From Mobula birostris (Eukaryota), in the NCBI RefSeq assembly GCF_030028105.1, contig NC_092370.1, positions 186,416,005-186,480,004 on the forward strand: 64,000 nt of DNA, in the 5' to 3' direction. The translations under genes and the position numbers were made by a program. The notes under the pieces are model-generated. The model was not told where the DNA came from and did no database searches. It saw only the letters and a list, made by a program, of their open reading frames with translations. Below, piece by piece: positions 11,251-55,266 of this stretch (positions are counted from its first letter, which is position 1; every line of letters begins with the position of its first letter).

Positions 11251-11704
11251 CAAGATTTTCTTTTACATTATTCATCGTTTACAGCCTGTTTAACACTGAA
11301 ATCTCTTAAACTCTGTCATATGCAGGGATAACCTGTTGATATTTCATGTCATTAGCTGATGTGCTTTCTTCTGTTTGTTGGCTTTATTTCTACCAAGTTA
11401 CTTACGTCTCTGTCAGGTTAATTTTTTAAGATTATCAATAACCTTTGCTTTTTATTGTTAAGCCATTGGGTTAAAGCATTGTTCTTCAAATCTGCTATTG
11501 TTCAGTCATTTCCCAGAAAGTCCATTCCAGACTAATGCAGATCTAGATACCTGGGTTGAGCTACGTGATAGGTCTGATACATTTTTGATTCCATACTGTC
11601 ACTTGTCTCCATTGGCAGAGCCCGAATATGCTGGGATGGCCTAGCATTATGATGGAAGAATCCACTAATGAATTCCTAACTTTGATTATGTGTGAGTCTG
11701 TGTG

Positions 11705-11800
11705 TGTCATTTGTGAATGCTTGCAGGAAAATGAATTTCAGGGTAGTATATGGTGACATATACATACTTTGATAATTTATTTCCTTTGAATTTCAAACTT
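11705..11800 (+). mobile_element. Rex1/Babar-type LINE 3' tail fragment
   Basis: GCAGGAAAATGAATTTCAGGGTAGTATATGGTGACATATACATACTTTGATAAT is the sense version of the tails at 33000, 43600 and 56403. Confidence 0.7.
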
Positions 11801-13699
11801 AAACTGATCGTATCTGGCTCAGGATTAGAATACTCTTTTCCTTCAGTGAAGATACATGTTCTGAAAACTGGGAATTAAAAATTAATAATTAGTCTTAGGA
11901 ATACCTTGACTGAGGCCTCACAGTCTGACTCCTTGTGCTGGAGAGTTGGCTCCTTGACCCACTGTATCAGGTTCAGGTAGGTCCGGGGGGAAGCTGCAGG
12001 TATCAAGAGTGGGCCAAATTCTGGTTGTTTCCACTTATTCTTTATCTTTCCTCGGTTGGTTTATTCTGTTCATTGTATACCAATTTGTATTTTGCAATAA
12101 TATTTAGTTATATATTTCATTATTTTTGATAACAAATCATTCAATAGAAAATGCAGCAGTTTGATGTTGAGGCACAAAGGGATGATATTTAGTCTTTGCT
12201 ACTTAGATCTGATCTTAGAATTTGACTGATTTTTCATGGATCAGAATCTTGGAAACTAAGTTTATATGTAAATTATTAAATATGAGCTAGCTCAGTCTGT
12301 CAGATTTGTTCCATAAAATTGCGGAAATAAAGCTAAACAAGTGTGTATATAAAATTAATACAGATTAATCTTCATTATATTTGTTATTCACCCTGACTTA
12401 CTATTTGAAGGAAGTTTTGTATAAATTGTACCAATCGTACATTACTAATTTTATTGTACATATTTCACATAAATCATGAATTTACCTATTAATATATTTG
12501 ATAATATTAGGGATGATTTAAATAAATCAGTTGCTTATAAGTATTTTGATACATTTTCAATACTGGCATCTTGTTAAATTGGTGCTTTGTGACTTTATCA
12601 GAATATTTGCAAAATTTCATTTCCATTGTCTTGGGCATTTCTTAATACAACCCACAAAAAAAAAAGAAATTTTATGCATATTATGGTTGTCTCAGTACCC
12701 AATGGAAAATTCAACTGCTAACGTTGGGGCAGGATTTTTGGTTAACCTTGCTGTTTTTCTCCAGCACTAAATTCTCCCAAATTACATCCCAATTTTCAGT
12801 GAAATTTTCACTTTTACTTGTATGACAACAACTGTTATTATTCTTAGAGTCTGGCTTATTTGGAAAGTTAATGCAAAGTGAAGACAATCATAAACTGCCC
12901 TCTCATGCATACTCCTCCTGCATTTACCAGCCTGTCTAAGAACCTTGCAACCGCTAAACCCACACTCTTCCATTCATGCAACATCTACAGTATTTATTTA
13001 GTTCCAAAATTCTCATATGGCTAGAAGAATATTGTTTGTGTTACGATGTGTCACTTTAAAAGTTACCTGCAGCAATCACATGTGCTGGGTTATCCCCTGA
13101 GAACCATGATAACTTGTAACACATCAGTAGAAGCATTGTGCTGAAATTGACACTGCCGCAGGGAAATCTGAGAAATTCTGTTTTATGAACCTTGCTGATG
13201 AAGTTCTTTCTGTGTATTCAGACAGTGTTAGGGTGACCTACAATGCTATTTTAATACTATAAAGATGTAGTAAAACAGTTTCTGGCTCATAAGTCTTCCA
13301 GAATTCTCATGTGAATATTCTACAAAATGTCCTTGTAAGTTACTACCATGTTGCTTTTTCAAATGCACATTCATCTGTCTTTTTGTTTAAATTTCTTCAA
13401 TTTAATTTTGATCCCTCCTACATCAAAATAGGTCTACCCAAACTCACAAATAATAACCTTAGTAACTGACTAGATGAATAGATGAATGATCTAATTCATC
13501 CACATTGATCTCTTTGTTGACTTTGAAACAATTGACAGCAGCATTTCTCCTCCAATGTTCTCACAAATCTGCTCAGCTATCCAATTGTAACTAGTCTATT
13601 TCCATTGCACCTGAATGTTAATCTGCCGGTGTTATTTGAGATGCAGTATGCATCAGCTGATCATTGGTAAGGTTGATGTCTTCATTCTTAACAACAAAT

Positions 13700-14250
13700 C
13701 CCATGCTTTCAGAACTGGTTTATTTCCCCCTCCTGACTAATAACATTGAGATGGACTAGATTCTTGCAGCTTCAATACCTGAGTCAACAATGTTTTGATA
13801 TTCAGATAGAATATCACAGTCTTTACTGACACTTACTTGATCCTAAGTGCATTCTGACCTCCATTCCATATCTATTCCTGAAACCTTCATTGCACCCATT
13901 CTCATCTATTGTAATGGTCTGCCATTTTGTGTGCATCTCACATTAATTCAGTGAAAGAACTGCTATCCATGTGTTACCTTTATACCAAGTCCTGGTCATT
14001 TGTCCTGGTTAATGAAGTTACTGATCACTTCAAGTTTAACATCCTTATCCTGAAATTTTTATTTGTGCACATTTGTTTCTCTCTTTTATAACCGTCCACT
14101 CATGTTTACACTGCTCTTGCGTGTCATCCCTTCTTTAATCCTAGCTTTATTGGTTAGACCTTTACCCAGCTAAATCTTGCCATTCCAAACCAAATGCTTT
14201 TCTTTTTCCATCATTCTCTCTATTAAGAATTCCCTTTCCTGAAATTAAAC
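13700..14250 (+). mobile_element. Highly degraded L2-like LINE 3' region
   Basis: Weak resemblance to the L2 ETLIHAF..SRLDYCN region near 13875-13925. Confidence 0.4.
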
Positions 14251-14689
14251 TCAGTGGCTAACCTTTTAGTCACTCTTGTTAATAATTCTAATTTCTGGCA
14301 TGCTTTTTTTTCCCATAGTACTCATTAGTGAAAAACTAGTGACATTTGCTTTCAAATGCTGACCATTGTTTTAATAATTCTATTCTCAGGATTTTATTTA
14401 TATTGGTGGTAGAGAGTGCTGATTTGGAAGTGCATTTTGTACATAGCACACATCTCTGCTGTGAACAGCTGATGGAGAGAATGAATCATCAGGGTTGTGA
14501 AAAGGGTGCCACTTTGATGGGATGCTTTATCTTAGATGAGCTTATTATGGAAGAAAGAAAGTCATTAGTAAAGCATCTAAAGGGCTTGGACATGGCTCCT
14601 GTAATGATCTCCTATGGCTAAGATGACTGGTTTCCACTGAGCACAACCACAACCACAACCAATAGTCTGAAGGCCGAAGGTGGAATCTG

Positions 14690-14835
14690 AGACAAAAATT
14701 AAATATCTGGAATAACTCAGCGAGTCAAGTAGTGGGTCTGTGAAGGGTACTGATTCAATTTTTGACTTGAAGTGTCCTCTTACACTTTTTGCCATCTAAG
14801 ATGCTACCTGCTGAGCTCTTCCTACATTCTTTTTC
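14690..14835. mobile_element. Degraded Penelope pLTR fold-back
   Basis: AAATATCTGGAATAACTCAGCGAGTCA ... AGATGCTACCTGCTGAGCTCTTCCTACATT. Confidence 0.55.
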
Positions 14836-15109
14836 TATATCTACCACAACCAGCTTCCTCTATATGAGCTTTGACTCCAAATATTTCAATTTGATGCCCA
14901 TTTACTTCCACTTTGGCTCTAAGTAAGTGCTTTTTGATTGCATCAGCACCAAAACCTTCCACCATTTTGCTGGTGCTTGAAATAGACTGATCATATACTA
15001 ATTAACCAATTTGTATTTGTCACACTTAACTGTGATTGAAATAGAATTATATGATCCTATGAATAGAATATACACAGGCTTCCTTCTGCATTGTCAGCTA
15101 GATGCCAGT

Positions 15110-15386
15110 AGGCATCCGTTAGTCTTGCGAGACCATGGATCTGCGCCTGGAAAGTCTTCACTCTCCAGGGTGCAGGCCTGGGCAAGGTTGTATGGAAGAC
15201 CAGCAGTTGCCCATGCTGCAAGTCTCCCCTCTCCATGACGCCAATGGGTACAGCTTGGCACCAGTGTCGTTGCAGAGCAATGTGTGATTAAGTGCCTTGC
15301 TCAACACTTTACCTCGGCTGGGGCTCGAACTCATGACCTTCAGGTCGCCAGTCCAATGCCTTAACCACTTGGCCACAAGCCGACAC
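15110..15386 (-). mobile_element. tRNA-derived CORE-like SINE with RTE-type tail
   Basis: The minus strand has box A TGGCCAAGTGG, box B GTTCGAGCC and tail CCATGGTCTCGCAAGACTAACGGATGCCT. TSD TGCCAGT at 15103-15109 and 15388-15394. Same family as 29545-29855. Confidence 0.85.
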
Positions 15387-16424
15387 GTGCCAGTGTTGTA
15401 ACTATATCTGGATTAGCATAGTTGGAGGTTTGGCTAATTCTAGAGTGCATGTATTCAGTATTATGACTAGGATGCAGACTTGTTCCATTGTTTTTGCTTT
15501 ATCCAGCTATTTCTTGATAACCACTTAGAGTGAATGAAATTGGCTGAAGATATAACAGGCAGAAATCAATATGGATTATCCACTTGGCCCTTCTAGCTGA
15601 ACATAGTTGTGAATGCTTCAGTCATGTTCTTTCACAGTCATCTGATGGGCTCAATTATAATGGATGATTGTTTTTGTTCTACCAGTTAGCTCATTAATTG
15701 TCAGCTACCATTCATATGTATTTAACCCATTTGCTCAGCAGGACATCCTTAAAGCTGTTCTACCCATTTAATTTAGATATTAATTGAGTATTCTTTCCAA
15801 AACCATTTGCCTTATTTATTTCTTAATTTCTAGAAATTTGACTTTTGAGTGTTGGTACCAGGTTCATGGTCCTCATAACTGATGATTCACAGGGATTTTA
15901 TAATTTCTACCTATGTACCTTGCCTGGGTCATTATAAAGATGACAACTCAGGATGAATGTTACCTTTCATGATTTTCTTTATACATCCAGAGGCACTTAG
16001 ATTTTTGTTTCAGTTAGTATTTAGTCAATTGAAGTCCACATTAAGATTCTGTTAGATACCTTTGTGCCTGCTAAGTTATTCCTCAGGCTGCCACAGTCAT
16101 CTGTAGCACATCGATCACTCAACAAATCTGAAGTACTTCTACCTTTAGATTTGCATTCAAATTGGTGTAGGTCACTCAGTCCCATATGTCTGTTCTCCCA
16201 TTCATTTAGATCACAATTTATTTGTATCGTAATTCCAGTTAGCTATTTTCATCCCACGCATCTTAATATCCTATATCTAAAAATATATCAGTCTTGATAC
16301 TGAAATTTTAAATTAGCATAGGTTTGGTAGGTTTAGTTTAGATGAAATAGTTCCAACTTTCTTTTAACCTATGTGAGCTAAATGGCCAAGTCAACATTCT
16401 TACATTTTGGGAACTCTTATCAAA

Positions 16425-16525
16425 GGAACAGTGGAAGCAGATACAATTTTGATATTCAATGGACATAGATAGGCACAGGAATATGCAGGGAATTGAGGGA
16501 TATAGATCAAGGCAGAATAGGTTAG
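16425..16525 (+). mobile_element. CR1 3' end, first part (split by the Rex1-type insertion; continues at 18590-18668)
   Basis: GTGGAAGCAGATACAATT...GAGGGATATAGATC, with the tail GGCACAGACATATTGGGCTGATGAGCCTATTCCTGTGCTGTACTGTTCT resuming near 18600. Confidence 0.65.
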
Positions 16526-18590
16526 TTCAAGTTTATTGTCATACCCAAGGTATAAATGCCACAAAAATTAGAATATGTTATAAACATGACAAACGTGCAA
16601 CACATAAACTTAATTAACATAAATTATTCATGATCTACAGAACAAAATTTAAAAAAAAAACACGCTGGCATTAGTGAAAGCTGAGGGAAATATTGTCCAA
16701 GGAAAAGTTGGGATTTTGTGGGGTAGTACTGATGGCAGTGGGGGAAAAATCTGTTTTTGAACCTTAAGATAAGGGTATTGAGAGTCCTAAACATCCTATC
16801 TGATGGCAACAATGAGAAGAGGGCGTGGCCCAGCTAGTAGGGGTCCTTAATGATGGATGTTGTCTTCCTGGGATATCACCTAATATACATGTCCTCAGTG
16901 GTAGGCAGAGCTATAACCATGATGGAACTGACTGAGTCCCCATTCTCTGTAGCCCCTTGCATTTCTCTGCATTGGAATTTCTATATCAGACTACAATGCA
17001 ACAAGTCAGAGTGCTTTTCTCTATACATCCATAGAGGTTTGTCCATATACGATGATACACTAAACCTTCTTATACTGGTGCACTTTCTTTGTGGTTGAAT
17101 CCATGATCTTGGCCCAGGATGTTGATACCCAACAACATGAAGCTGATTCTGCCAACAACAGTGGTGTCATTGGCAATTTTGTGGATGGCATTGGAAGTAT
17201 ACTTAGCCACTCAGTTGTAGGTATAGAGTAGAACAGGGGTCGAAGCACAGAGCCCTAGGAGGTTCGCCTGTGTTGATGGTTAGTGAGGAGGAGGTGAGGG
17301 TTCTGATGCATGCTGACTGCGGTCTCCCAGTGAGGAAATCAGCAATCCAATTGCAGAGGGAGGTATATGGACCCAGGACTTGGAGCTTGATTATAAATTG
17401 TGTGGAGATGATGGTGTTGAACGCTGAACAGTAGTCAATGAACAGTGACCTGATGTATGTATTCTGGTTGTCAAGGTCTAGTTATAGATCTATTGTGATT
17501 GGCGAATTGAAACAGTCCAGGTTGTTGCTGAGGCAGGAGTTGATCAGAGCCATAGCCAAACACTCGAAGCACTCTTGTTGCAATAGACTTAAGGACTACT
17601 GTTTAGTGGTCATTAAAGAAGGTCACTCTGCTCTTTTTGGACACCAGTACAATTGATGCCATCTTGAAGCAGTATCCAGTGTATGCTCTTTCTCCACCTT
17701 TGTCCATACCTTCATCATGCTCTCTTCTGGCGCTTCACTCTTCAGTCTCTGCAGAAAGCAGAAGTACAGCCAGGTGGCCAGATTTCCCAAAGTGCAGTTA
17801 TGAGATTGCTCAATAAGCACATTTGGTGATGGTTTAATAGTGGTCGAGTATCTTGGGCCCTATGGTATTGCAGGTGAACTGCTGGTAGTAGTTTGACAGA
17901 GGTTTCTGTAAGCTCACATGATGTTTGTTTCTTCTGCTTGCAATGATGGGGAAAGCATCAGACTGTGCTGTTTTGTGCATGTTAATCACAACACTCAATT
18001 CTTCCATTGCCACCTTAATGTCTGCCTGGTGTGGGATGTAGACTGCAACCAGCATAATGGTGGATGGTATGGATGACACTTGACTGCTAGGTGTTCCAGA
18101 TCAGGAGAGAGAGAACTGCCACATTGAAAGACTACAATAAACACCATTGAAAATGCCTTTTCAGATGCCATCATCCAATCCATACAATGGATGGTGAAAC
18201 ACTTTGGCTGGAGTACCATTTTCAGAGAGCAGGGAGTGAGCTATGTGAAATAAACCTCACAATAGTCTCTTTTGTCTCTCTGATAGTGGAGTCTTGCAGG
18301 AGGTCCTCCATCTAATTTCTGACAACTTCTAGGAGGATGCTAGGGAGATAGTGTTTCAAGCCCTGATGATTTATTCCTACTTGAAATCCTCCCCAGCATC
18401 TATGTTCTCACACAGCGGAAGTCTCTCCAGTACTTCCAGGTCTGAACTCGCTTGTGTCTTTTCTGTTGAGTTTGTTGGGTAAGTCCAGTGTTCTAAGATC
18501 AGTAATGCATTTTGTTCATTATGCATTCTTTATTGCCACAGAATTCAGCTTTACACATTTCCACAAAGTTTCCATGCTCCAGCGACATCA
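16526..18590 (-). mobile_element. Rex1/Babar-clade LINE, near full span with internal deletions
   Basis: Endonuclease remnant ORF 17834-18079 (VAVYIPHQAD...TCNTIGPKILDHY), RT remnant near 17060-17500, and C-terminus LPSDRMFRTL...RFKNRFFP (ORF 16624-16812). Confidence 0.85.
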
Positions 18591-19607
18591 TTTGGCATTA
18601 TGCTTGGCACAGACATATTGGGCTGATGAGCCTATTCCTGTGCTGTACTGTTCTGTGCTTTATGTTTGATGTATAATTTCTCTCAAATTAACCTAACAAA
18701 TTCTTGAATTGCCTAAAAAGTTTGAATGATGTTATTTTTTAATATTAAAGTCAATACAAGCTCAGTTAATGAAATCTTCAGTTCAATTTAATCTAACTTT
18801 TCATCCAATTATCATTCTTGTTAATTTAAGCTGTACTCATCTAAGATTAATAATGTTCCTGAGCTAAAGGTCCCCAGTTCTTAGTGTGGTATTTAAGTTG
18901 GGGTCCATGAAGAGATTTGAAAAGAATTACTTTATGCTTTGTTTCATTTAATTTGCAACCCCTGTTTATTATTATAAAAGTAGCATTGGCTTTAATACTT
19001 ATCTGTAGGAAACAGCACCTTTTACTGCCACCACTGCTTTCTTTTAGATACTGGTTAGTTTGGTATTAATTCTGACTCTCCTATAAATTCCCCACACCTA
19101 GTATTGCCTTTAAATATATCATGCAATATTTTGTTGAATAGCACTGAAACTCAAATTATATCAATTCCACCATTCATACTATATATATTGATTGAGTTAC
19201 TCAAATAAATGCCTTTAAGAAATCATGCTTTCATTTGTTAGAATGAGAGACTTTTCTAAATGCAATTAATTTTGTTAATGTCTCTCAAAGTTTTCTCTAA
19301 TTCTGACAATACATTGACTTTCTTGTCACTGCAAGGTTCATCCTTCCAATTTTTAATCGATCCGTCCCACTGGACTATACTCCTGCAATAATTCTGATCT
19401 CCCAACTGCCACCAACCCAATGATTAGCTTTTGCGATTCCTTCCTCCTTTGATGTTGCTTCTGATCCTTCGTCATGCCTGTCTCATAACACCTACTTCTC
19501 CGATTTCTTCCTTCTTCCAATGGTCCTCCAGATCTTGGTTTTAAACCATCCACCACAAGCTGACTTTCATTTCTGTAAATTCCCTTCCCCTTCCATTCTT
19601 TCAACTT

Positions 19608-19671
19608 AACAACCACAGGTCCAAGTTGCTCTGTGGCTGGCCAACTTTGTTAGTCTTTTGAGGAGTGTGCT
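19608..19671 (+). repeat. 64-bp direct repeat, left copy (flanks ERV remnant)
   Basis: 58/64 ungapped identity to 21276-21339. Confidence 0.95.
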
Positions 19672-20660
19672 TATAACTCCCTTATGCTAACATCATTTGG
19701 CTCCTGGTTCTTTGGAAAACAACTTAACCTTAGCAGTGGAATTGTTCAGATGGCCCCAACATCCCCAGATCATCTAAGAAATAATGAGGAGAAGCAAATG
19801 AAGGGATCACTGAATGATATTGGGGGCCTAATTCTACATGGAATAAGTGTTTCATGGGTTGGTGGTTCCCTGAATATAATTTGATAAAAGTGAGACCCCC
19901 TGCATTGTATTTATCCCACAGCCATTTAATCAGTACTGGTGTAAGAGGGAAGATGGAAGTCAGTTCATGGGCCAGAGTAAGTGTGGTAACCGAAGTACTG
20001 AATGAACGGCTGGTAAAAGTGCTTTGCAACGGGTGCCTTGGGCATTAAATGGCACATACTAGCTATGCAGCGACTGAACTTATCTATGGCTTCCTTGGAG
20101 TTGGAAGAGCAGTTATTTTTCGAATATGTGGTACCCTTCATGCATCATAATATGTGATTTGAGACATGAACAACATCATATAAACAGCACATCACTGAAG
20201 TTGAAAGGTTCTCTCAATATGGGACAGGAAAAGCTGCTCGAGAATTGACTTTCATCCTTTCACCCTTGAGAAATTGTTAAATGACACAGCTGACTCCATG
20301 GATGAGGCACAACAGGCAATTTCTGAAATATTTGGCAGAGTTAGTGGCAGTACGACCAGTAGCTCTGAAAAACCAAATGGCCCTAGACTTTATATGAGTT
20401 GAAAAAGGGTGTACATGTGCTGTAATTGAGCAAGAATGTTGCACCTGTATACGAATCTGAAAATATAACTCACTTGACGAATCATATCTGCGAGGCTGCA
20501 GATAGAATTAGGGGAGAGCAGTTCCACAATTATAATCCCCTGCTCCCCCAGGAATCCTGAGGCCATTTAGAATGCTGGAAGGATGGTGGGCTACTGTTTT
20601 ATGTTATGAAATAAACATTGGGGTAATAATAATGACAAATAGCCCAATTAATTCTGGTGC
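19672..20660 (+). pseudogene. env: Endogenous retrovirus env remnant (gamma-type SU C-terminus and TM), multiply disrupted
   Basis: 20335-20451 reads AELVAVRPVALKNQMALDFI*VEKGCTCAVIEQECCTCI, which is an immunosuppressive-domain-like L(Q/K)NxxALD plus CX6CC. Upstream are the heptad-like LEKLLNDTADSMDEAQQAISEI and the SU-like ALNGTY*LC...YLWLPWSW. Confidence 0.9.
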
Positions 20661-20841
20661 TTAGTAGCGCGTCCGAGAAGGAGGGAATATTAGGATTTTG
20701 CGTACTCTTTGGTAATGGATGGGGTAAATGGTAAAAGAAAGCCCTGAAATCTGAATCATTATAGCCTTAAAGACATAATTTGCTTTGTAAATCCTTATAA
20801 TACTGAATGTATGTTGTTATGGGATGACAAAAAGGAGGGAA

Positions 20842-21276
20842 TGTGGAAATATGTATTGAACTTTGTATTTTTTTGTAACCAGTTGATGTGACAAATTGGG
20901 GTAGAGAATCCAAGAGTGCTAAGCTAACATGTTGCACGTGACTACAAGAAATGTGCTTATCAAGGAGTATGTGACTGCAAGTATCCAATGTACAGAGCAT
21001 TTGCAAGAATAAGGAAGTAGCAGAGATGAGAACTGCAGAAAGCAGACTATAACAAATGTATCTGAAGGACTGAGCTTGCTGGAAATGGTAACCTTGTCTC
21101 GTTCTTATGTATAAAAGAAACGCTTTGTAAATGGTGTGTTGGAAGGCCCCTATCATCCCTGCTGGGAGTGGAGGTGAACTTTCCCCTCGCAATTAATAAA
21201 GAATAAAGGCACATGATGAAGATCTACTCAGTGTTGGTATTGTGTTTTGAGAGACTTAGTGGAGAGATACTCGACA
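20842..21276 (+). mobile_element. ERV 3' LTR (about 435 bp)
   Basis: Preceded by PPT AAAAAGGAGGGAA (20829-20841). TGT...ACA termini, TATAAAA at 21110-21116, AATAAA at 21195 and 21202. Confidence 0.8.
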
Positions 21277-21339
21277 ACAACCACAGGTCCAAGTTGCTCT
21301 TTGGCTGACCAACCATGTTAGCCTTTTGAGGAATGTGCT
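21276..21339 (+). repeat. 64-bp direct repeat, right copy
   Basis: 58/64 ungapped identity to 19608-19671; begins at the LTR terminal A. Confidence 0.95.
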
Positions 21340-21702
21340 AGGTGGCACAGTTTTGATAATTAAAGTGCACGAGGTCTCAGGCTATGCACACAAATATACC
21401 CATTTTCAATGAAGGGAGAGCCCGGCATAAAATGCAGAAGAAAAAGCTGAAACATTTGCACGAACTTTTAACCAAAAATGCCTTGTGACTGATCCATTTC
21501 AACCTCCTCTAGCAGTGGCCGATGTGGTAGATGCCTGTCTTCAATCAATTTAATCTACTCCATATGATAATAAATAATGGCTAAAGCCACTGGATGCAAC
21601 CAAGATTCAGGGCCCTGACAACATTCTGGCAATAATACTTAAGACTTGTGCTCCAGAACTTGCTATGCCCTTGGCCAAGCTGTTTCAGTAGACCTACAAG
21701 AC

Positions 21703-22950
21703 TCAAAGTTGAAAGTACTTTTTATTATCAAATTATGTATGCTATATATAACCTTGAAACATAGAAAACATACAGCACAATACAGGCCCTTCGGCCCACA
21801 ATGCTGTGCCGAACATGTACATACTTAGAAATTACCTAAGTTTACCCATAGTCCTCTATTTTTCTAAGCTCCATGTGCTTATCCAGGAGTCTCTTAAAAG
21901 ACCCTATCATATCTGCCTCCACCACCGTCGCTGGCAGCCCATTCCATGCATTCACCACTCTCTGCGTAAAAAAAATTACCGCTGATATCTCCTCTGTACC
22001 TACTTCCAAGCAGTTTAAAACTGTGCCCTCTTGTGTTAGCCATTTCAGCCCTGGGAAAAAACCTCTGACTATCCACACGATCAGTGCCTCTCATCATTTT
22101 GTACACTTGAGATTCATCTTCTTGTAGACAGCCATAAAACAAAGAAACACAATAGAACTCATTAAAATTCTCATACAACAAGGACCGTCAAACATCCAAT
22201 GTGCAAAAAGAAGTCATACAAACAATAAAAAGTTAACAACACACAGCACATGAACTGCAGTATCCCCAAAAGTGAGTTCACAGCCACAGAGCTAGTTCAG
22301 CTTTGCAGGGCACAGTCATGGAGGTAGTCAGTGCTGAGGTGAGTGAAGCTGGCCCAGGAGCCTGATAGCTGCAGGGCTAAGCCATGGGGCCAGTTTAATA
22401 CTGAGGCGAGTGCTGATGGTTGTGGGCTTCAGGTGCAGAGTCAATTCAGTGTTGAGGTTAGTAAACCTCGCAAAGTAGTGAACTGAAGACCAGTTCATCC
22501 TTCACCCTCGGCTATGATTCCTTGGTCTTTGTAATCTGGCACAGTACATAAAATGGCTAATCGTTGGTTTATTTTTCTCTTTTGGGTTCTGGGCCCAGGC
22601 CCACTGCTTTGATCCTGCCCCAAGTCCACTCCAGCAATAGCCAAACATAGGTTCATTTTTTGCTCTTGGGCCATGGCTCCAACCACTCCAATCCAGCCCC
22701 AAATCCACTCCAGCAATTGCCGCTGCAGCCGTACCTGCCTTCTCGAGAGTCCAGTTTGATGAATCCTTCAGAATACTGCAAAGATGCCTGTTTGTACAGA
22801 CAGCTGAAAAGCACAACTCCCAAAGAGAAATTACAGGCTGTGGATTGCAGTGGTTGTAGTCCAGAAAAAGTGTAATTGATAGAATAATTAGTAGTTTAGT
22901 TTACTGCCTGTAAGGCATCGCCATGTCTCGCCAGCTCCAGCTTCATTCCA
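21703..22950 (-). mobile_element. Non-autonomous Rex1/Babar-tail element (no coding remnant seen), nested in the LINE above
   Basis: Reverse tail CAAAGTTGAAAGTACTTTTTATTATCAAA...GAGATTCATCTTCTTG, shared with 33000, 43600 and 56403. The body contains degenerate internal repeats. Confidence 0.65.
21758..22105 (-). mobile_element. CR1 3' fragment nested in the Rex1-tail element
   Basis: ORFs 21842-22078 and 21894-22181 (FFTQRVVNAWNGLP; TRGHSFKL). CTTGA is duplicated at 21753-21757 and 22106-22110. Confidence 0.9.
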
Positions 22951-29259: not shown

Positions 29260-32200
29260 TTTACAAGTAGATGATGGGCGTAACATGAACGTAAGGAAGG
29301 ACAAGCCAAAGATTGGGTACAAATGCAGACAGGGCAAAGAGTTAAATTGTACTACAGAGGCAAAATTCAAAAGGCCGAAGAATGCAGGACTGAAGGTGCT
29401 GTAGTTAAATACGTGTAGCATTCAGAATAAGGTGGACGAACTCGTGGCACAATTAGAGACTGGTCGGTCACTGAATCGTGGCTGAAAGAAGGCCATAGTT
29501 GGGAGCTTAACATCAAAGGATATGCTTTGTATCAAAAGGACAGGATGTGTTGGTGTGTGGCCAAGTTGTTAAGGCGTTGGCCCAGTGATCTGAAGGTCGC
29601 TAGTTCGAGGCTCAGCTGAGGCAGCATGTTGTGTCCTTGAGCAAGGCACTTAACCACACATTGTTCTGCGGCGACACCAGTGCTAAGCTGTATCGGCTCT
29701 AGTGTACTTCCCTTGGACAACATCGGTGGCGTGGAGAGGGGAGACATGCAGCATGGACAACTGCTGGTCTTCCATACAACCTTGCCCAGGCCTACGACCT
29801 GGAAACCTTCCAAGGTGCAAATCCATGGTCTCACGAGACTAATGGATGCCTTATATATCAAAAGGACAGGCAGAAAGATATAGGTGGTGGTGTGTTTCTG
29901 TTGGTAAGAGGTGGAATTACATCTTTAGAAAGAGGTGACATAGGGTCAGAGAATGCTGAATCATTGTGGGTAAAGTTAAGAAACTGCAAGGGTTAAAAAA
30001 CCATTATGGGAATCATATATAGACCTCAAAATAGTAGCCAAGATGTGGAGTTGAGATTGCAAAGGGAGCTGGAAAAGGCATGTAATAAGGTTAACAACAC
30101 AATTGGAATCGGGGTCTTCAATATGGAAGGGGATTGGGAAAATCAGGTTGGTGTCGGATCGCAAGAGAGAGAATTTGTTGAATGCCTTTGAGATGGCTTT
30201 TTAGAGCATCTTGTGCTTGAGCCTACTCGGGGGAAGGCTATCTTAGATTGGATGTTGTGTCATAACCCAGATCTTATTAGGGAACTTAATGTAAGGGAAC
30301 CTTTAGGAGGCAGTGATCATAATATGATTGCATTTATGCTGCAATTTGAGAGGGAGAAGCATAAGCCACAGGTATCAGTATCGCAATGGAATAAAGGGAA
30401 TAACAGAGGGATGAGAGAGGAGCTTGCCGGGTGGATTGGAGGAAGATACTGGCAGGGATGATGGCAGAGCAGAGATGGCTGGAGTTTCTGGGTATAGTTC
30501 ACAAGGCACAGGATAGATATGTCCCACAGAAGAAGTTGTTCTCAAATGGTAGGGATAGGCAATCTTGGCTGATAAGGGAAGTTAAGGACTGCATAAAAGC
30601 CAAGAAAAGGGCATATAAGTGAGTGGGAAGTTGGATAATTGGGAAGCTTTTAAAATTCAACAAAAGGCAATTGAAAAAGCTATTTGCAGGGAAAAGATGA
30701 AATATGGGGGCAAACAAGTCAATAATATAAAGGAGATACCAGAAGTTTTTTTCAGTTATATAAAGAGTAGAAGGGAAGTGAGAGTTGATATTGGACCACT
30801 GAAAAATGATGCTGGTGTGGTAGTAATGGGGGACAAAGAAATGGCAGATGAACTTAATAGGTACTTTGCATCAGTCTACACTGTGGAAGACACTAGCAGT
30901 GTGCCAAAAGTATGTGAGTGTCAGGGTGCAGGAGTGAGTGCCATTGCAATTACAAAGGAAAAGGTCCTAGGTAAACTCAAAGGTCTTAAGGTGGATAAAT
31001 CACCTGGACCAGATGGACTACATCCCAGAGTCCTGAGAGAGGTTGCTGAAGAGATAATGGATGCATTGGTCATGATCTTTCAAGAATCACTTGATTCTAA
31101 CATGGTCTTGGAGGACTGGAAAAGTGCAAATGTCACTCCACTCTTTAAGAAAGGAGGAAGGCAAAAGAAAAGAAATTATAGGCCAGTTAACCTAACCTCA
31201 GTGGTTGGAAAAGTATTGGAGTCTATTATTAAGGTTGAGGTTTCGGGGTACTTGGAGACTAATGATAAAGTAAGTCAAAGTCAGCATGGTTTCTGTAAAG
31301 GGAAATCTTGCCTGACAAATCTGTTAGAGTTCTTCGAGGAAGTAACAAGCAGGGTGGACAAAGGCGAGGCAGTGGATATCATTTACTTGGATTTTCAGAA
31401 GGCATTTGATAAGGTGCCACATGTGAGACTGCTTAACAAGATAAAATCCTTTGGCATTACAGGAAAGATACTGGCATGGATAGAGGAATGGCTGACAGGC
31501 AGGAGGCAGCGAGTGGGAATAAAATGGGCCTTTTCTGGTTGGCTGCTTGTGACTAGTGGTGTTCCTCAGGGGTCAGTATTGGGACTGTTACTTTTCACAT
31601 TGTTTGTCAGCGATTTGGATAATGGAATTGATGGCTTTGTGGCAAAGTTTGTGTATGATACAAAGACAGGTAGTGCTGAGGAAGCAATGCATTTGCAGGT
31701 AGACTTAGACATCTTGAAAAATGGACAAAAAAGTGGCAGATGGAATACACTTTAAGGAAATGTACGATAATGCATTTTGATAAAAGGAACAATAGTAGAG
31801 ACTATTACCTAAATGGAGAGAAGGTTCAAACATCAGAGATGCAGAGGGATTTAGGAGTTCTCGTGCAAGCCTCCCAGAAGGTTAATTTACAGGTTGAGTC
31901 TGTGGTAAGGAAGGCAAATGCAAGGGAAATAGAATATAAAGGCAAGGAGATAATGCTGAGCCTTTATAAAACACTAGTCAGGCTGCACTTGGAGAATTGT
32001 CAACAGTTTTGGGCCCCATATCTCAGAAGGGATGTGCTGTTATTGAAGAAAGTCCAGAGGAGGTTCATGAGGGTGATTCCAGGAATGAAGGGGTTAACAT
32101 ATGAGGAGTGTTTGGCAACTTTGGGCCCAGACTTACTGGAATTTAGAAGTATGAGGGGGAATGTCATTGAAACTTACTGAGATAGGTGGTTATGGAGGGG

Positions 32201-32535
32201 ATGTTTCCTGTGGTGGGGGCATGCAGAACTAGAGGGCACAGCCTCAAAATTGAGGGGCAACCTTTTAGAACAGAGTTAAGGAGGAATTTTTTTTAGCCAG
32301 AGAGTAGTGAATCTGTGCAATGCTCTGCCATATTCTGTGGGGGATGCAAAGTCCGTGGGTATATTTAAGGTGGAAATTGACAGTTTCCTGATTGGTCAGG
32401 GCATCAAAGGATATGGTGAAAAGGCAGGTGTATGGGGTTGAGTGGGATCCAGGATCAGCCATGATGGAATGGTGGAGCAGACTCAATGGGTTGAATGGCC
32501 TAATTCTGCTCCTATGTCTTATGGTCTTATGGTCT
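29260..32535 (+). mobile_element. CR1 LINE, nearly complete ORF2 (APE endonuclease and RT) plus 3' tail, disrupted
   Basis: Endonuclease motifs GIIYRP and GGSDHNMI. RT ORF 30619-31755 (KSPGPDGLHP, NYRPVNLTS, YLDFQKAFDKV, GVPQGSVLG; catalytic motif decayed to FVYD). Tail CTTATGGTCTTATGGTCT. Confidence 0.96.
29545..29855 (+). mobile_element. tRNA-derived CORE-like SINE with RTE-type tail, inserted in the CR1 endonuclease region
   Basis: Boxes TGGCCAAGTTG and GTTCGAGGC, core-like GTGTCCTTGAGCAAGGCACTTAACC. Perfect 15-bp TSD TATCAAAAGGACAGG at 29530-29544 and 29856-29870. Confidence 0.92.
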
Positions 32536-48600: not shown

Positions 48601-49195
48601 GGGATTTAAAGTTTTTACATGTAGGCTCATACTAGGTTTGGAGGATGTTTCCAGTGTTGCCCTCTTAGAAGTTCATGCATTACTCTCCTTAATATCTATA
48701 AATCTCTTGGAAGATGTAATAAGAACCATGATTCTCTGCCAACCAATATGTTTCAAGTACTTGCAATATCACTTAGAGTCGGTAAAAGCTTGTCAGCTGA
48801 ACATGTTAACTTCCATAGGTATTAACTGTTTCTTGTAAATATATCCTTGTAAGTATATGGCCCTTATGTAAGTATAACAATGGCATAGCGACACAGCAAG
48901 TTGAGCACTGCCTCATAGCATCAGAGACTCAAAGTTCAATTCTGACCTCTGGTTGTGTCTGTATGAAGTTTGCATGTTTTGCGTGTAGTCACATAGAGTT
49001 CTTATAGCAAAAAGGTGTGCAGAATGCTAGGTTAATTGGCCACTATAAGTTGCCCCGAGTGTGTAAGTGATTGGAAGAATCTGGGAGGCGTTAATGCAAA
49101 TGTGTGGAGAACAAAAAAAGTGAGGTTAATGTAGCAACACACATAAAAGTTGCTGGTGAACACAGCAGGCCAGGCAGCATCTCTAGAAAGAGGTA

Positions 49196-49233
49196 CAGTC
49201 GATGTTTCAGGCCGAGACCCTTCGTCAGGATTA
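49196..49233 (-). ncRNA. Hammerhead ribozyme motif, inverted pLTR copy (partly decayed)
   Basis: The minus strand reads TAATC-CTGACGA-AGGGTCTCGGCCT-GAAA-CATC-GACTG. Confidence 0.7.
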
Positions 49234-49876
49234 ACTGAAAGAAGAACTAGTAAGAGATTTGAAAGTGGGAGGGGGAGATCCGAAATGATAGGAGACTCCC
49301 GGCACTCCCGATGCGGCCTTCTATATATTGGTGAGACCCAACGCAGACTGGGAGACTGATTCGCTGAACACCTACGCTCTGTCCACCAGAGAAAGCAGGA
49401 TCTCCCAGTGGCCACACATTTTAATTCCACGTCCCATTCCCATTCTGATATGTCTATCCAAGGCCTCCTCTACTGTCAAGATGAAGCCACACTCAGGTTG
49501 GAGGAACAACACCTTATATTCTGTCTGGGTAGCCTCCAAACTGATGGCATGAACATTGACTTCTCAAACTTCTGCTAATGCCCCTCCTCCCCCTCGTACC
49601 CCATCCATTATTTATTTATTTATATACACACATTCTTTTTCTCTCTCTCTTTTTTCTCCCTCTGCCCCCCTCACTATACCCCTTGCCCATCCTCTGGGTT
49701 CCCCCCCCCCACTTTCTTTCTCCCTAGGCCTCCTGTCCCATGATACTCTCATATCCCTTTTGCCAATCACCTGTCCAGCTCTTGGCTCCATCCCTCCCCC
49801 TCCTGTCTTCTCCTATCATTTTGGATCTCCCCCTCCCCCTCCCACTTTCAAATCTCTTACTGACTCTTCTTTCAGT

Positions 49877-49914
49877 TAGTCCTGACGAAGGGTCTCGGCC
49901 TGAAACGTCGACTG
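49877..49914 (+). ncRNA. Minimal type I hammerhead ribozyme motif in Penelope pLTR
   Basis: TAGTC-CTGACGA-AGGGTCTCGGCCT-GAAA-CGTC-GACTG: stem I TAGTC/GACTG, intact core, palindromic ACGT stem III, GUC cleavage triplet. Confidence 0.85.
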
Positions 49915-50559
49915 TACCTCCTCCTAGAGATGCTGCATGGCCTGCTGTGTTCACCAGCAACTTTTATGTGTGTTGCTTGAAATTCTAGCACCTGCAGATT
50001 TCCTCGCGTTTGCGAGGTTTATGTAGGATTAGTGTAAATAGGTGATTGATGGTCATGGAGGATTCATTGGGTTGAAGGACATGTTTCCATGTATTATTTC
50101 TCTATGACTCTGTACCCTAGTCTCTTGTACATTAAATATGTGTATTAAATTTAAAAAAACATCTTTTATTTTTATTTCAGAATCCCAGCATTTGTAGTTT
50201 CTTTTTATTTTCATTTAGTGTTAAGTTTTGTATGAAAATATCAATTACTATTGTTGGCGCTGGGCTGAGAACTATCCTAAATTTTCTTTTAAAGAAAGAG
50301 TATTGAAAAAGTGAAAGTGATAGGATTGGGAAGGTAAGAGTGATGGTTTTGTAGAGGATTTAGTATGGAACATTGATTTAATTATTTACTGTACTTCTAG
50401 CGTGGTTGCATTTAATGTGAAGGACAGATTTTTCTTTTGACCCAACATTAAGCTGTTGAGGAGCCTGGGAATTATGACACAGTCATTAATACATTGTTCA
50501 CAAAGGTACAATACATGTTCAATACAAGTATTGCAACTTACAGATCATCTTTCAAGTGT

Positions 50560-52854: not shown

Positions 52855-55266
52855 AAAGAAATTGTAGAATGTCTAAGGGATGGCTTTTTAGAATAGCTTG
52901 TTGTTGAGCCCACTAGGGGATCGACTGTGCTGGATTGGGTGTTGTGCAATGATCCAGAGGTGATAAGAGAGCTGAAGCAACTCTTAAGGAACAATGATCA
53001 CAATATGATCGAGTGCACTTTGAAATTTGAGAAAGATTAACTAAATTCCAATGTGTCAGTATTTCAGTGGAATAAAGGAAACTACAATGGCATGAGAGAG
53101 GAATCTGCCAAAGTTGACTGGAAGGAAACCCTAGTAGGAAGGACAGCAGAGCAGCAAAGGCTGGAGTTTCTGTGAAAAATGAGGGAAATGCCAGACAGAT
53201 ATATTCCAAATAAGAAGAAATTTTCGAATGGAGAAAGGACACTACTGTGGATGACAAGTGAAGTTAGAGCCAAAGTGAAAGCAAAAGAGAGGACATACAA
53301 GGAAGTCAAAGCTGGTGGGAAGCTAGAGGATTGGAAAGCTTTTAAAAACCTGCAGAAGGAAACTAAGAAGGTCATTAGGAAAGAAAAGATGAATTACGAA
53401 AGGAAGCTGGTGACTAGTATCAAAGATACTAAAAGCCTTTTTAAGTATATAAAGAGTAAAAGAGAGTTGAGGGTAGATATAGGACCAATAGAAAATGACA
53501 CTGGAGATATTGTAATGAGAGATGCAGAGATGGCATTGGAACTGAATGAGTATTTTGTATCAGTCTTGACAGTGAAAGACTTCTGCAGTATACCGGACAT
53601 TCAAGAGTGCCAGGGAAGTGAAATATGTGCAGTGAAAATTAGGACTGAGAAGGTGCTCAGGAAGCCTTATGGTCTGAGGGTGGATAAATCTTCTGGACTT
53701 GATGGAATGCACTCTCGGGTTCTGAAGGAAGTAGCTGGAGAGATTGTGGAAGCATTAACAATGATCTTTCAAGAATCGATAGATTCTGGCATTGTACTGG
53801 ATAACTGGAAAATTGTAAATGTTACTCCTCTATTTAAGAAGGGTGGGAGGTAGCAGAAAGGAAACTGTAGACCTGTTAGCCCAACATCAGTGGTTAGGAG
53901 GTTGTTGGAATCGATTGTTAGGGATGAGATTACAGAATACTTGGAGGCACATGACAAGATAGGCCAAAGCCAGCATGGTGTTCTGAAAGGAAAATCCAAC
54001 CTGACAAACCTACTGCAATTTTTTTGAGGAAATTACAAGTAGGGTAGACAAAGGAGATGCAGTAGATGTGGTGTACTTGGATTTTCAGAAGGCCTTTGAC
54101 AAGGTGCTGCACATGAGGCTGCTTAGCAAGATAAGAGCCCATGGAATTACAGGGAAGTTACTAGCATGGGTGGAGCACTGGCTGATTGGTAGAAAACAGA
54201 GAGTAGGAATAAAGGGATCCTATTCTGGCTGGCTGCTGGTTACCAGTGGAGTTCTAGAGGGTTTAGTGTTGGGACCACTGCTTTTTACGATGTATGCCAA
54301 TAATTTAGACTGTGGGATTAATGGATTTGTGGCTAAATTTGCCGATGATACAAAGATAGGTGGAGGAGCAGGTAGTGTTGAGGAAACAGAGAGCCTGCAG
54401 AGAGACCTAGATAGTTTAGGGGAATGGGCAAAGAAGTGGCAAGTGAAATACAATATTGGAAAGTGTATGGTCGTGCACTTTGGTGGAAGAAATAAATGGG
54501 AAGACTATTATTTAGATGTGGAGAGAATTCAAAATGCAGAGATGCAAAGGGACTTGGGAATCCTTGTGCAGGATACCCTAAAGGTTAACTTCCAGGTTGA
54601 GTTGGTGGTGCAGAAGGTGAATGCAATGTTGGCATTCATTTCTAGAGGTATAAAATATTAGAGCAGGGATGTGACATTGAGGCTGTATAAAGCACTCATG
54701 AGACCACACTTGGAGTATTGTGTGCAGTTTTGGGCTCCTTATTTTAGAAAGGATATACTGACATTGGAGAGGGTTCAGAGAAGATTCATGAGAATGATTC
54801 GAGGAATGAAAGGGTTACCGTATGAGGAACATCTGGCAGCTCTTGGGCTGTATTCCCTGGAGTTCAGGAGAATGAGGGGGATCTCATTAGAAACATTCCA
54901 AATGTTAAATGGCCTGAACAGATTAGATGTCGCAAAGTGATTTCCCGTGGTAGGGGAGTCCAGGACAAGAGGACATGTCTTCAGGATTGAAGGATGTCCA
55001 TTTAGAACAGAGATGTCGAGAAATTACTTTAGTCAGAGGGTGGTTAATCTGTGGAATTTGTTGCCACAAGCGGCTGTGGAGGCCAAGTCATTGGGTGTAT
55101 TTAAGGCAGAGATGGATGGGTTCTTGATTAGCCAGGGCATCAAAGGGTATGGGAGAAGGCAGGGGAGTGGGGATGACTGGAAGAATTGGCTTAGCCCATG
55201 ACTGAATGGCAAAGCAGACTCGGTGGGCCAAATGGCCTACTTCTGCTCCTATATCTTATGGTCTTA
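52855..55266 (+). mobile_element. CR1 LINE ORF2 (endonuclease C-terminus, RT, 3' tail), disrupted
   Basis: ORFs 53179-53853, 54068-54661 (YLDFQKAFDKV...KFADDTK), 54671-54940 and 54947-55201; tail CTTATGGTCTT. Confidence 0.96.

Follow-up and report, generated by a model that had tools for sequence, protein, structure and literature searches.

Organization of the locus

Between positions 19608 and 21339 of the window, by which we mean the whole 64-kb stretch of DNA analysed, lies a fragment of an endogenous retrovirus (ERV) that consists of part of an env gene, a polypurine tract (PPT) and a single LTR, and that is bounded on either side by one copy of a long direct repeat. The features of the region, all on the plus strand, are:

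19609..19671, +, left 63-bp copy of the direct repeat, likely host target DNA (sequence; bin 19540–19624 with a single contig in each of organisms A and B)
19669..19671, +, GCT, a 3-nt overlap of the virus with the last bases of the left repeat, read as microhomology at the cut end (contig starts)
19672..20828, +, decayed 3′ part of a gamma-type env and the stretch up to the PPT, with many stops and frame changes
20365..20442, +, ISD-like stretch and CX6CC motif (the latter at 20416–20442) of the env TM subunit (PDB and Pfam searches)
20829..20841, +, polypurine tract, directly 5′ of the LTR start (sequence)
20842..21276, +, whole 3′ LTR of 435 bp, TG...CA, with its U5-like part retained (ends of family copies)
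21277..21339, +, right 63-bp copy of the direct repeat, from the base after the LTR CA (sequence and contig alignment)
21390..21700, +, old LINE ORF2 fragment in the right flank, outside the insert (best E=2.7e-22)

The env assignment rests on a 44-codon frame (20329–20460) that holds the ISD-like stretch, with one stop inside it, and then the CX6CC motif. This frame matches syncytin-1 (E=1.5e-4) and MLV p15E (E=0.004) in the PDB, and more weakly positions 450–483 of the 560 in the Pfam TLV_coat profile (E=0.014; 14.6 bits, below the cut-off of 22.5). The break in env is about 220 codons upstream of the TLV_coat match, and would therefore fall roughly in the middle of the gene if this was of the usual length. 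A Pfam scan of whole frames returned nothing in 15 of 15 frames, env included, a scan of 12 upstream frames gave two weak and unrelated matches only, and word-index searches found no protein relatives of env. No gag or pol families were detected in the six frames of 11400–19680, which is a weak test as the same scan missed env too.

The insert shares with gamma-type-env ERVs an ISD followed by CX6CC, and a PPT followed by a TG...CA LTR that is common to many copies with unrelated flanks. Retroviral integrase normally duplicates 4–6 bp of target DNA, and a normal provirus or solo LTR has two integrase-joined ends and a duplication of this size; here the left end lies inside env and the repeat is 63 bp long.

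The LTR and its family

Public contigs of four runs (X1; X5, from organism B; X14, from organism E; and X9, from organism C) were aligned to positions 19200–21749 at 80% identity, and the results below draw on listings that gave 24 of the 383 loose-end rows, 15 of the 64 joints, 32 of the 766 pieces and 40 of the 342 differences. Other copies of the family match the env part with 82–86% identity. Among the loose ends listed, copies lose their match before 20842 in 16 contigs of X1, 16 of X5 and one of X14, and behind 21276 in 13 contigs of X1, 10 of X5 and one of X9; agreement with the flanks beyond the LTR ends is only 0.38–0.44, i.e. the flanks are unrelated. Because the copies end at these two positions with unrelated flanks, the family LTR spans 20842–21276 and is 435 bp long, and the end at 21276 that a first-pass annotation of this DNA had assigned to it is confirmed by contigs of X1, X5 and X9.

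Within the LTR the expected signals are readily recognized, with TG at 20842, TATAAA at 21110, AATAAA at 21195 and 21202, and CA at 21275–21276. The distance from the two AATAAA hexamers to the CA end of the family is 69–76 nt, in keeping with the earlier estimate of about 70 nt, and there is likewise no poly(A). Because U5-like sequence and the terminal CA are retained and poly(A) is absent, the substrate of the insertion was DNA. There is no second copy of the LTR within the 64-kb window, as expected from the earlier description of a fragment that lacks a 5′ LTR.

Some further features of the family may be mentioned. A second PPT-like tract is present at 20675–20691, about 155 nt before the working PPT, with 13 purines ending GGAGGGAA and then TATT; it may be left over from an earlier PPT and LTR start, which would point to a past exchange of LTRs in the family. 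At 20808–20850, each of the four runs has contigs whose match is limited to the PPT plus 9 nt of the LTR start and is lost thereafter; related ERV families thus appear to share the PPT and LTR start and to differ in their LTRs. An 18-nt pattern built on the LTR end was also found at 22 metagenome loci, and all 22 are chance matches of at most 22 nt.

The direct repeats

The first-pass annotation described the env-PPT-LTR fragment as lying between two ungapped 64-nt repeats, and the sequence bears this out: 19608–19671 and 21276–21339, spaced by 1668, are identical at 58 of 64 positions, and the pair is recovered in a self-BLAST of the window with E=4e-18. The duplication had, however, been taken to start at the terminal CA of the LTR and to measure 64 bp, and this part requires revision. 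Base 21276 is the last base of the LTR, as judged from the ends of family copies in public contigs; since it is viral, and the repeat begins on the first base after the CA, the duplicated part is 63 bp rather than 64 (19609–19671 and 21277–21339, 57 of 63 identical, six differences). The A at 19608 that matches 21276 is best read as a chance agreement.

In both large runs, from organisms A and B, depth is a single contig to the left of 19625 (19200–19624) and in 21325–21579. The repeat is therefore found there on no other copy of the family at 80% identity or more in the public contigs, a search that older or seedless copies could escape. The 63-bp repeat is neither viral nor a young dispersed repeat, the latter holding at 80% identity or more. 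The first-pass annotation had named a viral or dispersed 64-mer, or a family LTR that does not end at 21276, as grounds for refuting it; all three were checked and none of them applies. It is best called anonymous host DNA, and we infer that it is a target duplication that was single before the insertion.

Other identities for the repeat were also considered. Contig alignment rules out env coding sequence and a viral leader, and the TGG expected at the start of a primer-binding site is absent from the sequence after the LTR. No tandem array was found at the locus, and an Rfam search gave 0 matches.

The truncated end

At the left side of the insert, two different env contigs of X1 and one of X5 start to match at 19669, three nucleotides inside the left repeat; for one of these (X1 record 3) the start follows from a joint at 19721 that has a side of 53 letters. 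Another (X1 record 2) extends a further 1,144 nt, which match neither the repeat nor the left flank. Because the env contigs start at 19669 and record 2 continues beyond, the virus has other sequence upstream of this point and shares GCT with the repeat. The observed bin depths are reproduced only by a start at 19669 (10.40 expected and 10.4 seen; 18.7 and 18.8). A 3-nt match would arise by chance with a probability of about 0.012–0.018, and the overlap, which is placed by where alignments of about 83% identity begin, is modest evidence; microhomology at the cut end supports joining by host repair. The insert has the two kinds of end seen in aberrant integrants, one exactly at the CA, and the other truncated with a short homology to the host (19669–19671).

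Neighbouring LINEs and other repeats

A LINE fragment on the same strand as the insert begins 50 nt after the right repeat (21390–21700), and we take it to be CR1-like. It has 114 protein relatives in a full HMMER search; a word-index protein search found none. Of four of the closest relatives that were looked up, three could be assigned to an organism, each of them a shark, so that the host is probably a cartilaginous fish. A resemblance of four residues, RSKL, to LINE ORF2 is present inside the repeat. The possibility that this LINE includes the repeat as its 5′ part is not supported, as anchored extension gave a score of 0 with four of four proteins, and LINE homology within the repeat was at the level of shuffled sequence in nine of nine local tests (in each, 26 or more of the 150 shuffles reached the same score). 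The same LINE family is represented by a second fragment, in a more advanced state of decay, on the minus strand at 15410–15750, which aligns only loosely across the repeat.

Elsewhere in the window are two long LINE copies (30170–32529 and 52857–55266) that are about 69% identical and have open RT-like frames of 166–378 codons, along with many shorter LINE tails. An inverted 169-nt pair (49133–49295 and 49809–49977), 91% identical and about 500 nt apart, is situated amid repeat fragments.

Carriers and age of the insertion

The same insertion is present in organism B, where contigs cross both junctions and 37 of 2,600 positions differ (1.4%). The two copies of the repeat differ at 6 of 63 positions in organism A (9.5%; 95% interval 3.6–19.6%) and at 9 of 63 in organism B (14%; 6.7–25.4%; for one B contig 7 of its 10 differences were listed, for the other 9 of its 12), and four of these differences are common to both organisms. 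Because the divergence between the repeats is 9.5–14% and that between the organisms 1.4%, the event is older than the separation of A and B, and is thus several times as old. Eight family pieces, from the 32 of 766 listed, show a divergence of 13–18%, a range biased by the 80% floor; the divergence of the repeats overlaps it, so that both may date from the same period.

For finer dating the repeats are too noisy, and the proposal in the first-pass annotation that their divergence of roughly 9% provides an internal clock is not well supported, given the breadth of the interval on 6 of 63 and the count of 9 of 63 in organism B. In the 508-nt orthologous contig of organism B (X5), six of the 12 differences fall within 21313–21333, in the right repeat, and include two doublets. 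The probability of such a cluster is about 0.0003 for a window chosen after the fact, and it represents either a local cluster of mutations or a small conversion, which inflates the repeat clock.

No empty site was seen: organisms A and B carry the insert, and none of the 15 of 64 joints listed skips it. This check rests on cover of the flanks in A and B; the flanks are uncovered in X14 and X9, which is not evidence of emptiness there. Neither A nor B shows a longer allele of the locus. In X14, a small run from organism E, there are near-identical pieces without flanks at 19932–20638 (15 differences and six gaps in 713 nt) and at 20726–21153 (six differences in 428 nt). Organism E is a third carrier of this copy; transcription may occur there, although the run was chosen for holding the sequence. 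X9, from organism C, contains a 236-nt contig at 20052–20287 that is identical to the window.

Comparison with described insertions

The closest counterparts are among the HERV-K(HML-2) elements of primates, which as described in PMC5488345 include a truncated provirus at 6p25.2 with a 111-bp duplication, a known empty site, and presence in related species. Other long HML-2 duplications are given in PMC5488345 and PMC4422153, such as 450 bp at 21q21.1, 206 bp at 4q32.1, and 61–250 bp at solo LTRs; PMC5488345 lists eight in the range of 13–450 bp, compared with an estimated 451 duplications, and PMC4422153 ascribes the long repeats to inefficient integration finished by host enzymes. These elements resemble the present one as germ-line ERVs in which long direct repeats enclose one LTR and a truncated internal part. 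They differ in being betaretrovirus-like, whereas the insert here has a gamma-type env and resides in a likely cartilaginous fish; their repeats have 0–3 mismatches and those here are 9.5–14% diverged; and at 6p25.2 it is the empty site that is known, while here microhomology has been mapped at the locus.

Aberrant integrations of ASLV/RSV and HIV-1, whose mechanism is set out in PMC5041404, likewise have one integrase-joined end and another that is often truncated, with short homology and an over-long host duplication, but were provoked in cell culture through mutant ends, through drugs or through a weak integrase, whereas the present example is natural, old and in the germ line. HTLV-1 proviruses without a 5′ LTR, as reported in PMC6950816, also have a 3′ LTR joined to internal pol or env sequence, the 5′ part having been lost before integration; they have a normal 6-bp repeat, with both ends joined by integrase, in contrast to the 63 bp seen here. 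ERVs with gamma-type env are common in cartilaginous fish, being reported from six of them, three with more than 500 copies, and those of fish and amphibians have an env with ISD and CX6CC, as does the insert here, which carries no pol by which to place it among them (bioRxiv 10.1101/2021.11.23.469661). We found no fish case of the one-ended architecture in the literature searched, which included few subscription papers and no supplements and is weak evidence on this point.

Origin of the insertion

We think it probable that the env-PPT-LTR remnant is a one-ended germ-line integration, with integrase responsible for the joint at the U5 end, and host polymerase and recombination for that at the truncated end. 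Integrase would have joined the CA end of U5 to host DNA at 21276/21277, leaving the other viral end unjoined and cut back into env. The free 3′ end would then have paired through three nucleotides with host sequence lying 63 bp past the joint, and host polymerase would have copied back over the site, with recombination or replication sealing the product and 63 bp becoming duplicated. All of these steps would have occurred at the time of integration, the repeat having been single beforehand. The geometry is consistent with the model in PMC5041404, with one normal and one truncated end, a short homology and a long host duplication. The structure also fits a later switch to an empty allele, and a further point against one-ended integration is that some 5–7 kb of provirus must be lost at the free end.

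The later event, the main alternative, would begin with a normal heterozygous provirus, in which a break or stalled fork near the 5′ end was mended with the empty allele as template; synthesis would run 63 bp past the integration site and then switch into env through the 3-nt homology, with removal of the 5′ LTR, gag and pol. This route, which we derive from standard repair pathways, predicts all the features observed, namely the exact U5 end, a left repeat that corresponds to what follows the LTR, and the 3-nt overlap, and it accounts for so much viral sequence being lost with no need for a free end to be trimmed at length. We nevertheless consider it a rather unlikely course of events, since it requires two of them, the second within the polymorphic period, while one-step formation of such structures has been demonstrated experimentally (PMC5041404); moreover, organisms A and B show no longer allele of the locus, and no paper describing the route was found in the literature searched. 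The two are inseparable at this locus because they yield the same product. The first-pass annotation had proposed aberrant integration or capture of cDNA at a staggered break, and the exact CA end and 3-nt microhomology support it in part, but it did not consider that the template might have been switched to the empty allele at a later time.

Capture of viral cDNA, older duplication of the repeat and copying by LINEs all fit less well, because the CA end is exact, the repeat starts on the very next base and U5 is kept. Integrase-independent capture at a staggered double-strand break would explain why the left end is plainly no integrase joint, and a long duplication with microhomology is typical of host repair; the right end, however, stands exactly at the CA of the family with no base lost or added, as integrase processing leaves it, where end joining would be expected either to retain terminal bases in unprocessed form or to trim beyond them, and a stagger of 63 nt is unusual, so that this origin is improbable. 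Slightly less credence can be given to a pseudo-duplication, modelled in PMC5488345, in which the 63-mer was already double, the provirus inserted normally, and a deletion moved the other copy beside env. The authors of that report raise the same possibility for HML-2 6p25.2, and here too it draws on the empty site being unseen; yet it needs an integration site that coincides with the first base of an existing repeat, there is no tandem array at the locus, and the divergence of the repeats is not above that among the family copies. The least probable origin is copying of viral RNA by LINE machinery, either as a processed ERV or by a template switch with the neighbouring LINE. The same-strand LINE fragment 50 nt past the right repeat and the RSKL resemblance would favour it, but LINE homology stops short of the repeat (by both the anchored extensions and the local tests), U5-like sequence and the CA end are retained, and a LINE-processed ERV copy is largely refuted by the 69–76 nt that follow AATAAA with no A tail.

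Implications

The architecture is already known from germ-line insertions of HERV-K(HML-2) and from experiments with HIV, and this locus is a clean and well-defined further example. It displays the junction pattern predicted for a half-finished retroviral integration, including the short priming homology, and suggests that rescue by the host is a route found beyond mammals and beyond drug-treated HIV. Scans for ERVs that require duplications of 4–6 bp overlook such insertions. One locus of a kind already described alters no model, but a count across the family could. It is also conceivable, if doubtful, that the locus represents a form of provirus loss other than solo-LTR formation, with a new and still heterozygous provirus shortened when a template switch to the empty allele took place at a microhomology. 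If so, long 'target duplications' beside truncated ERVs, those in humans included, would be scars of inter-allelic repair rather than of failed integration, and such scars would be countable genome-wide in the slowly changing genomes of sharks and rays.
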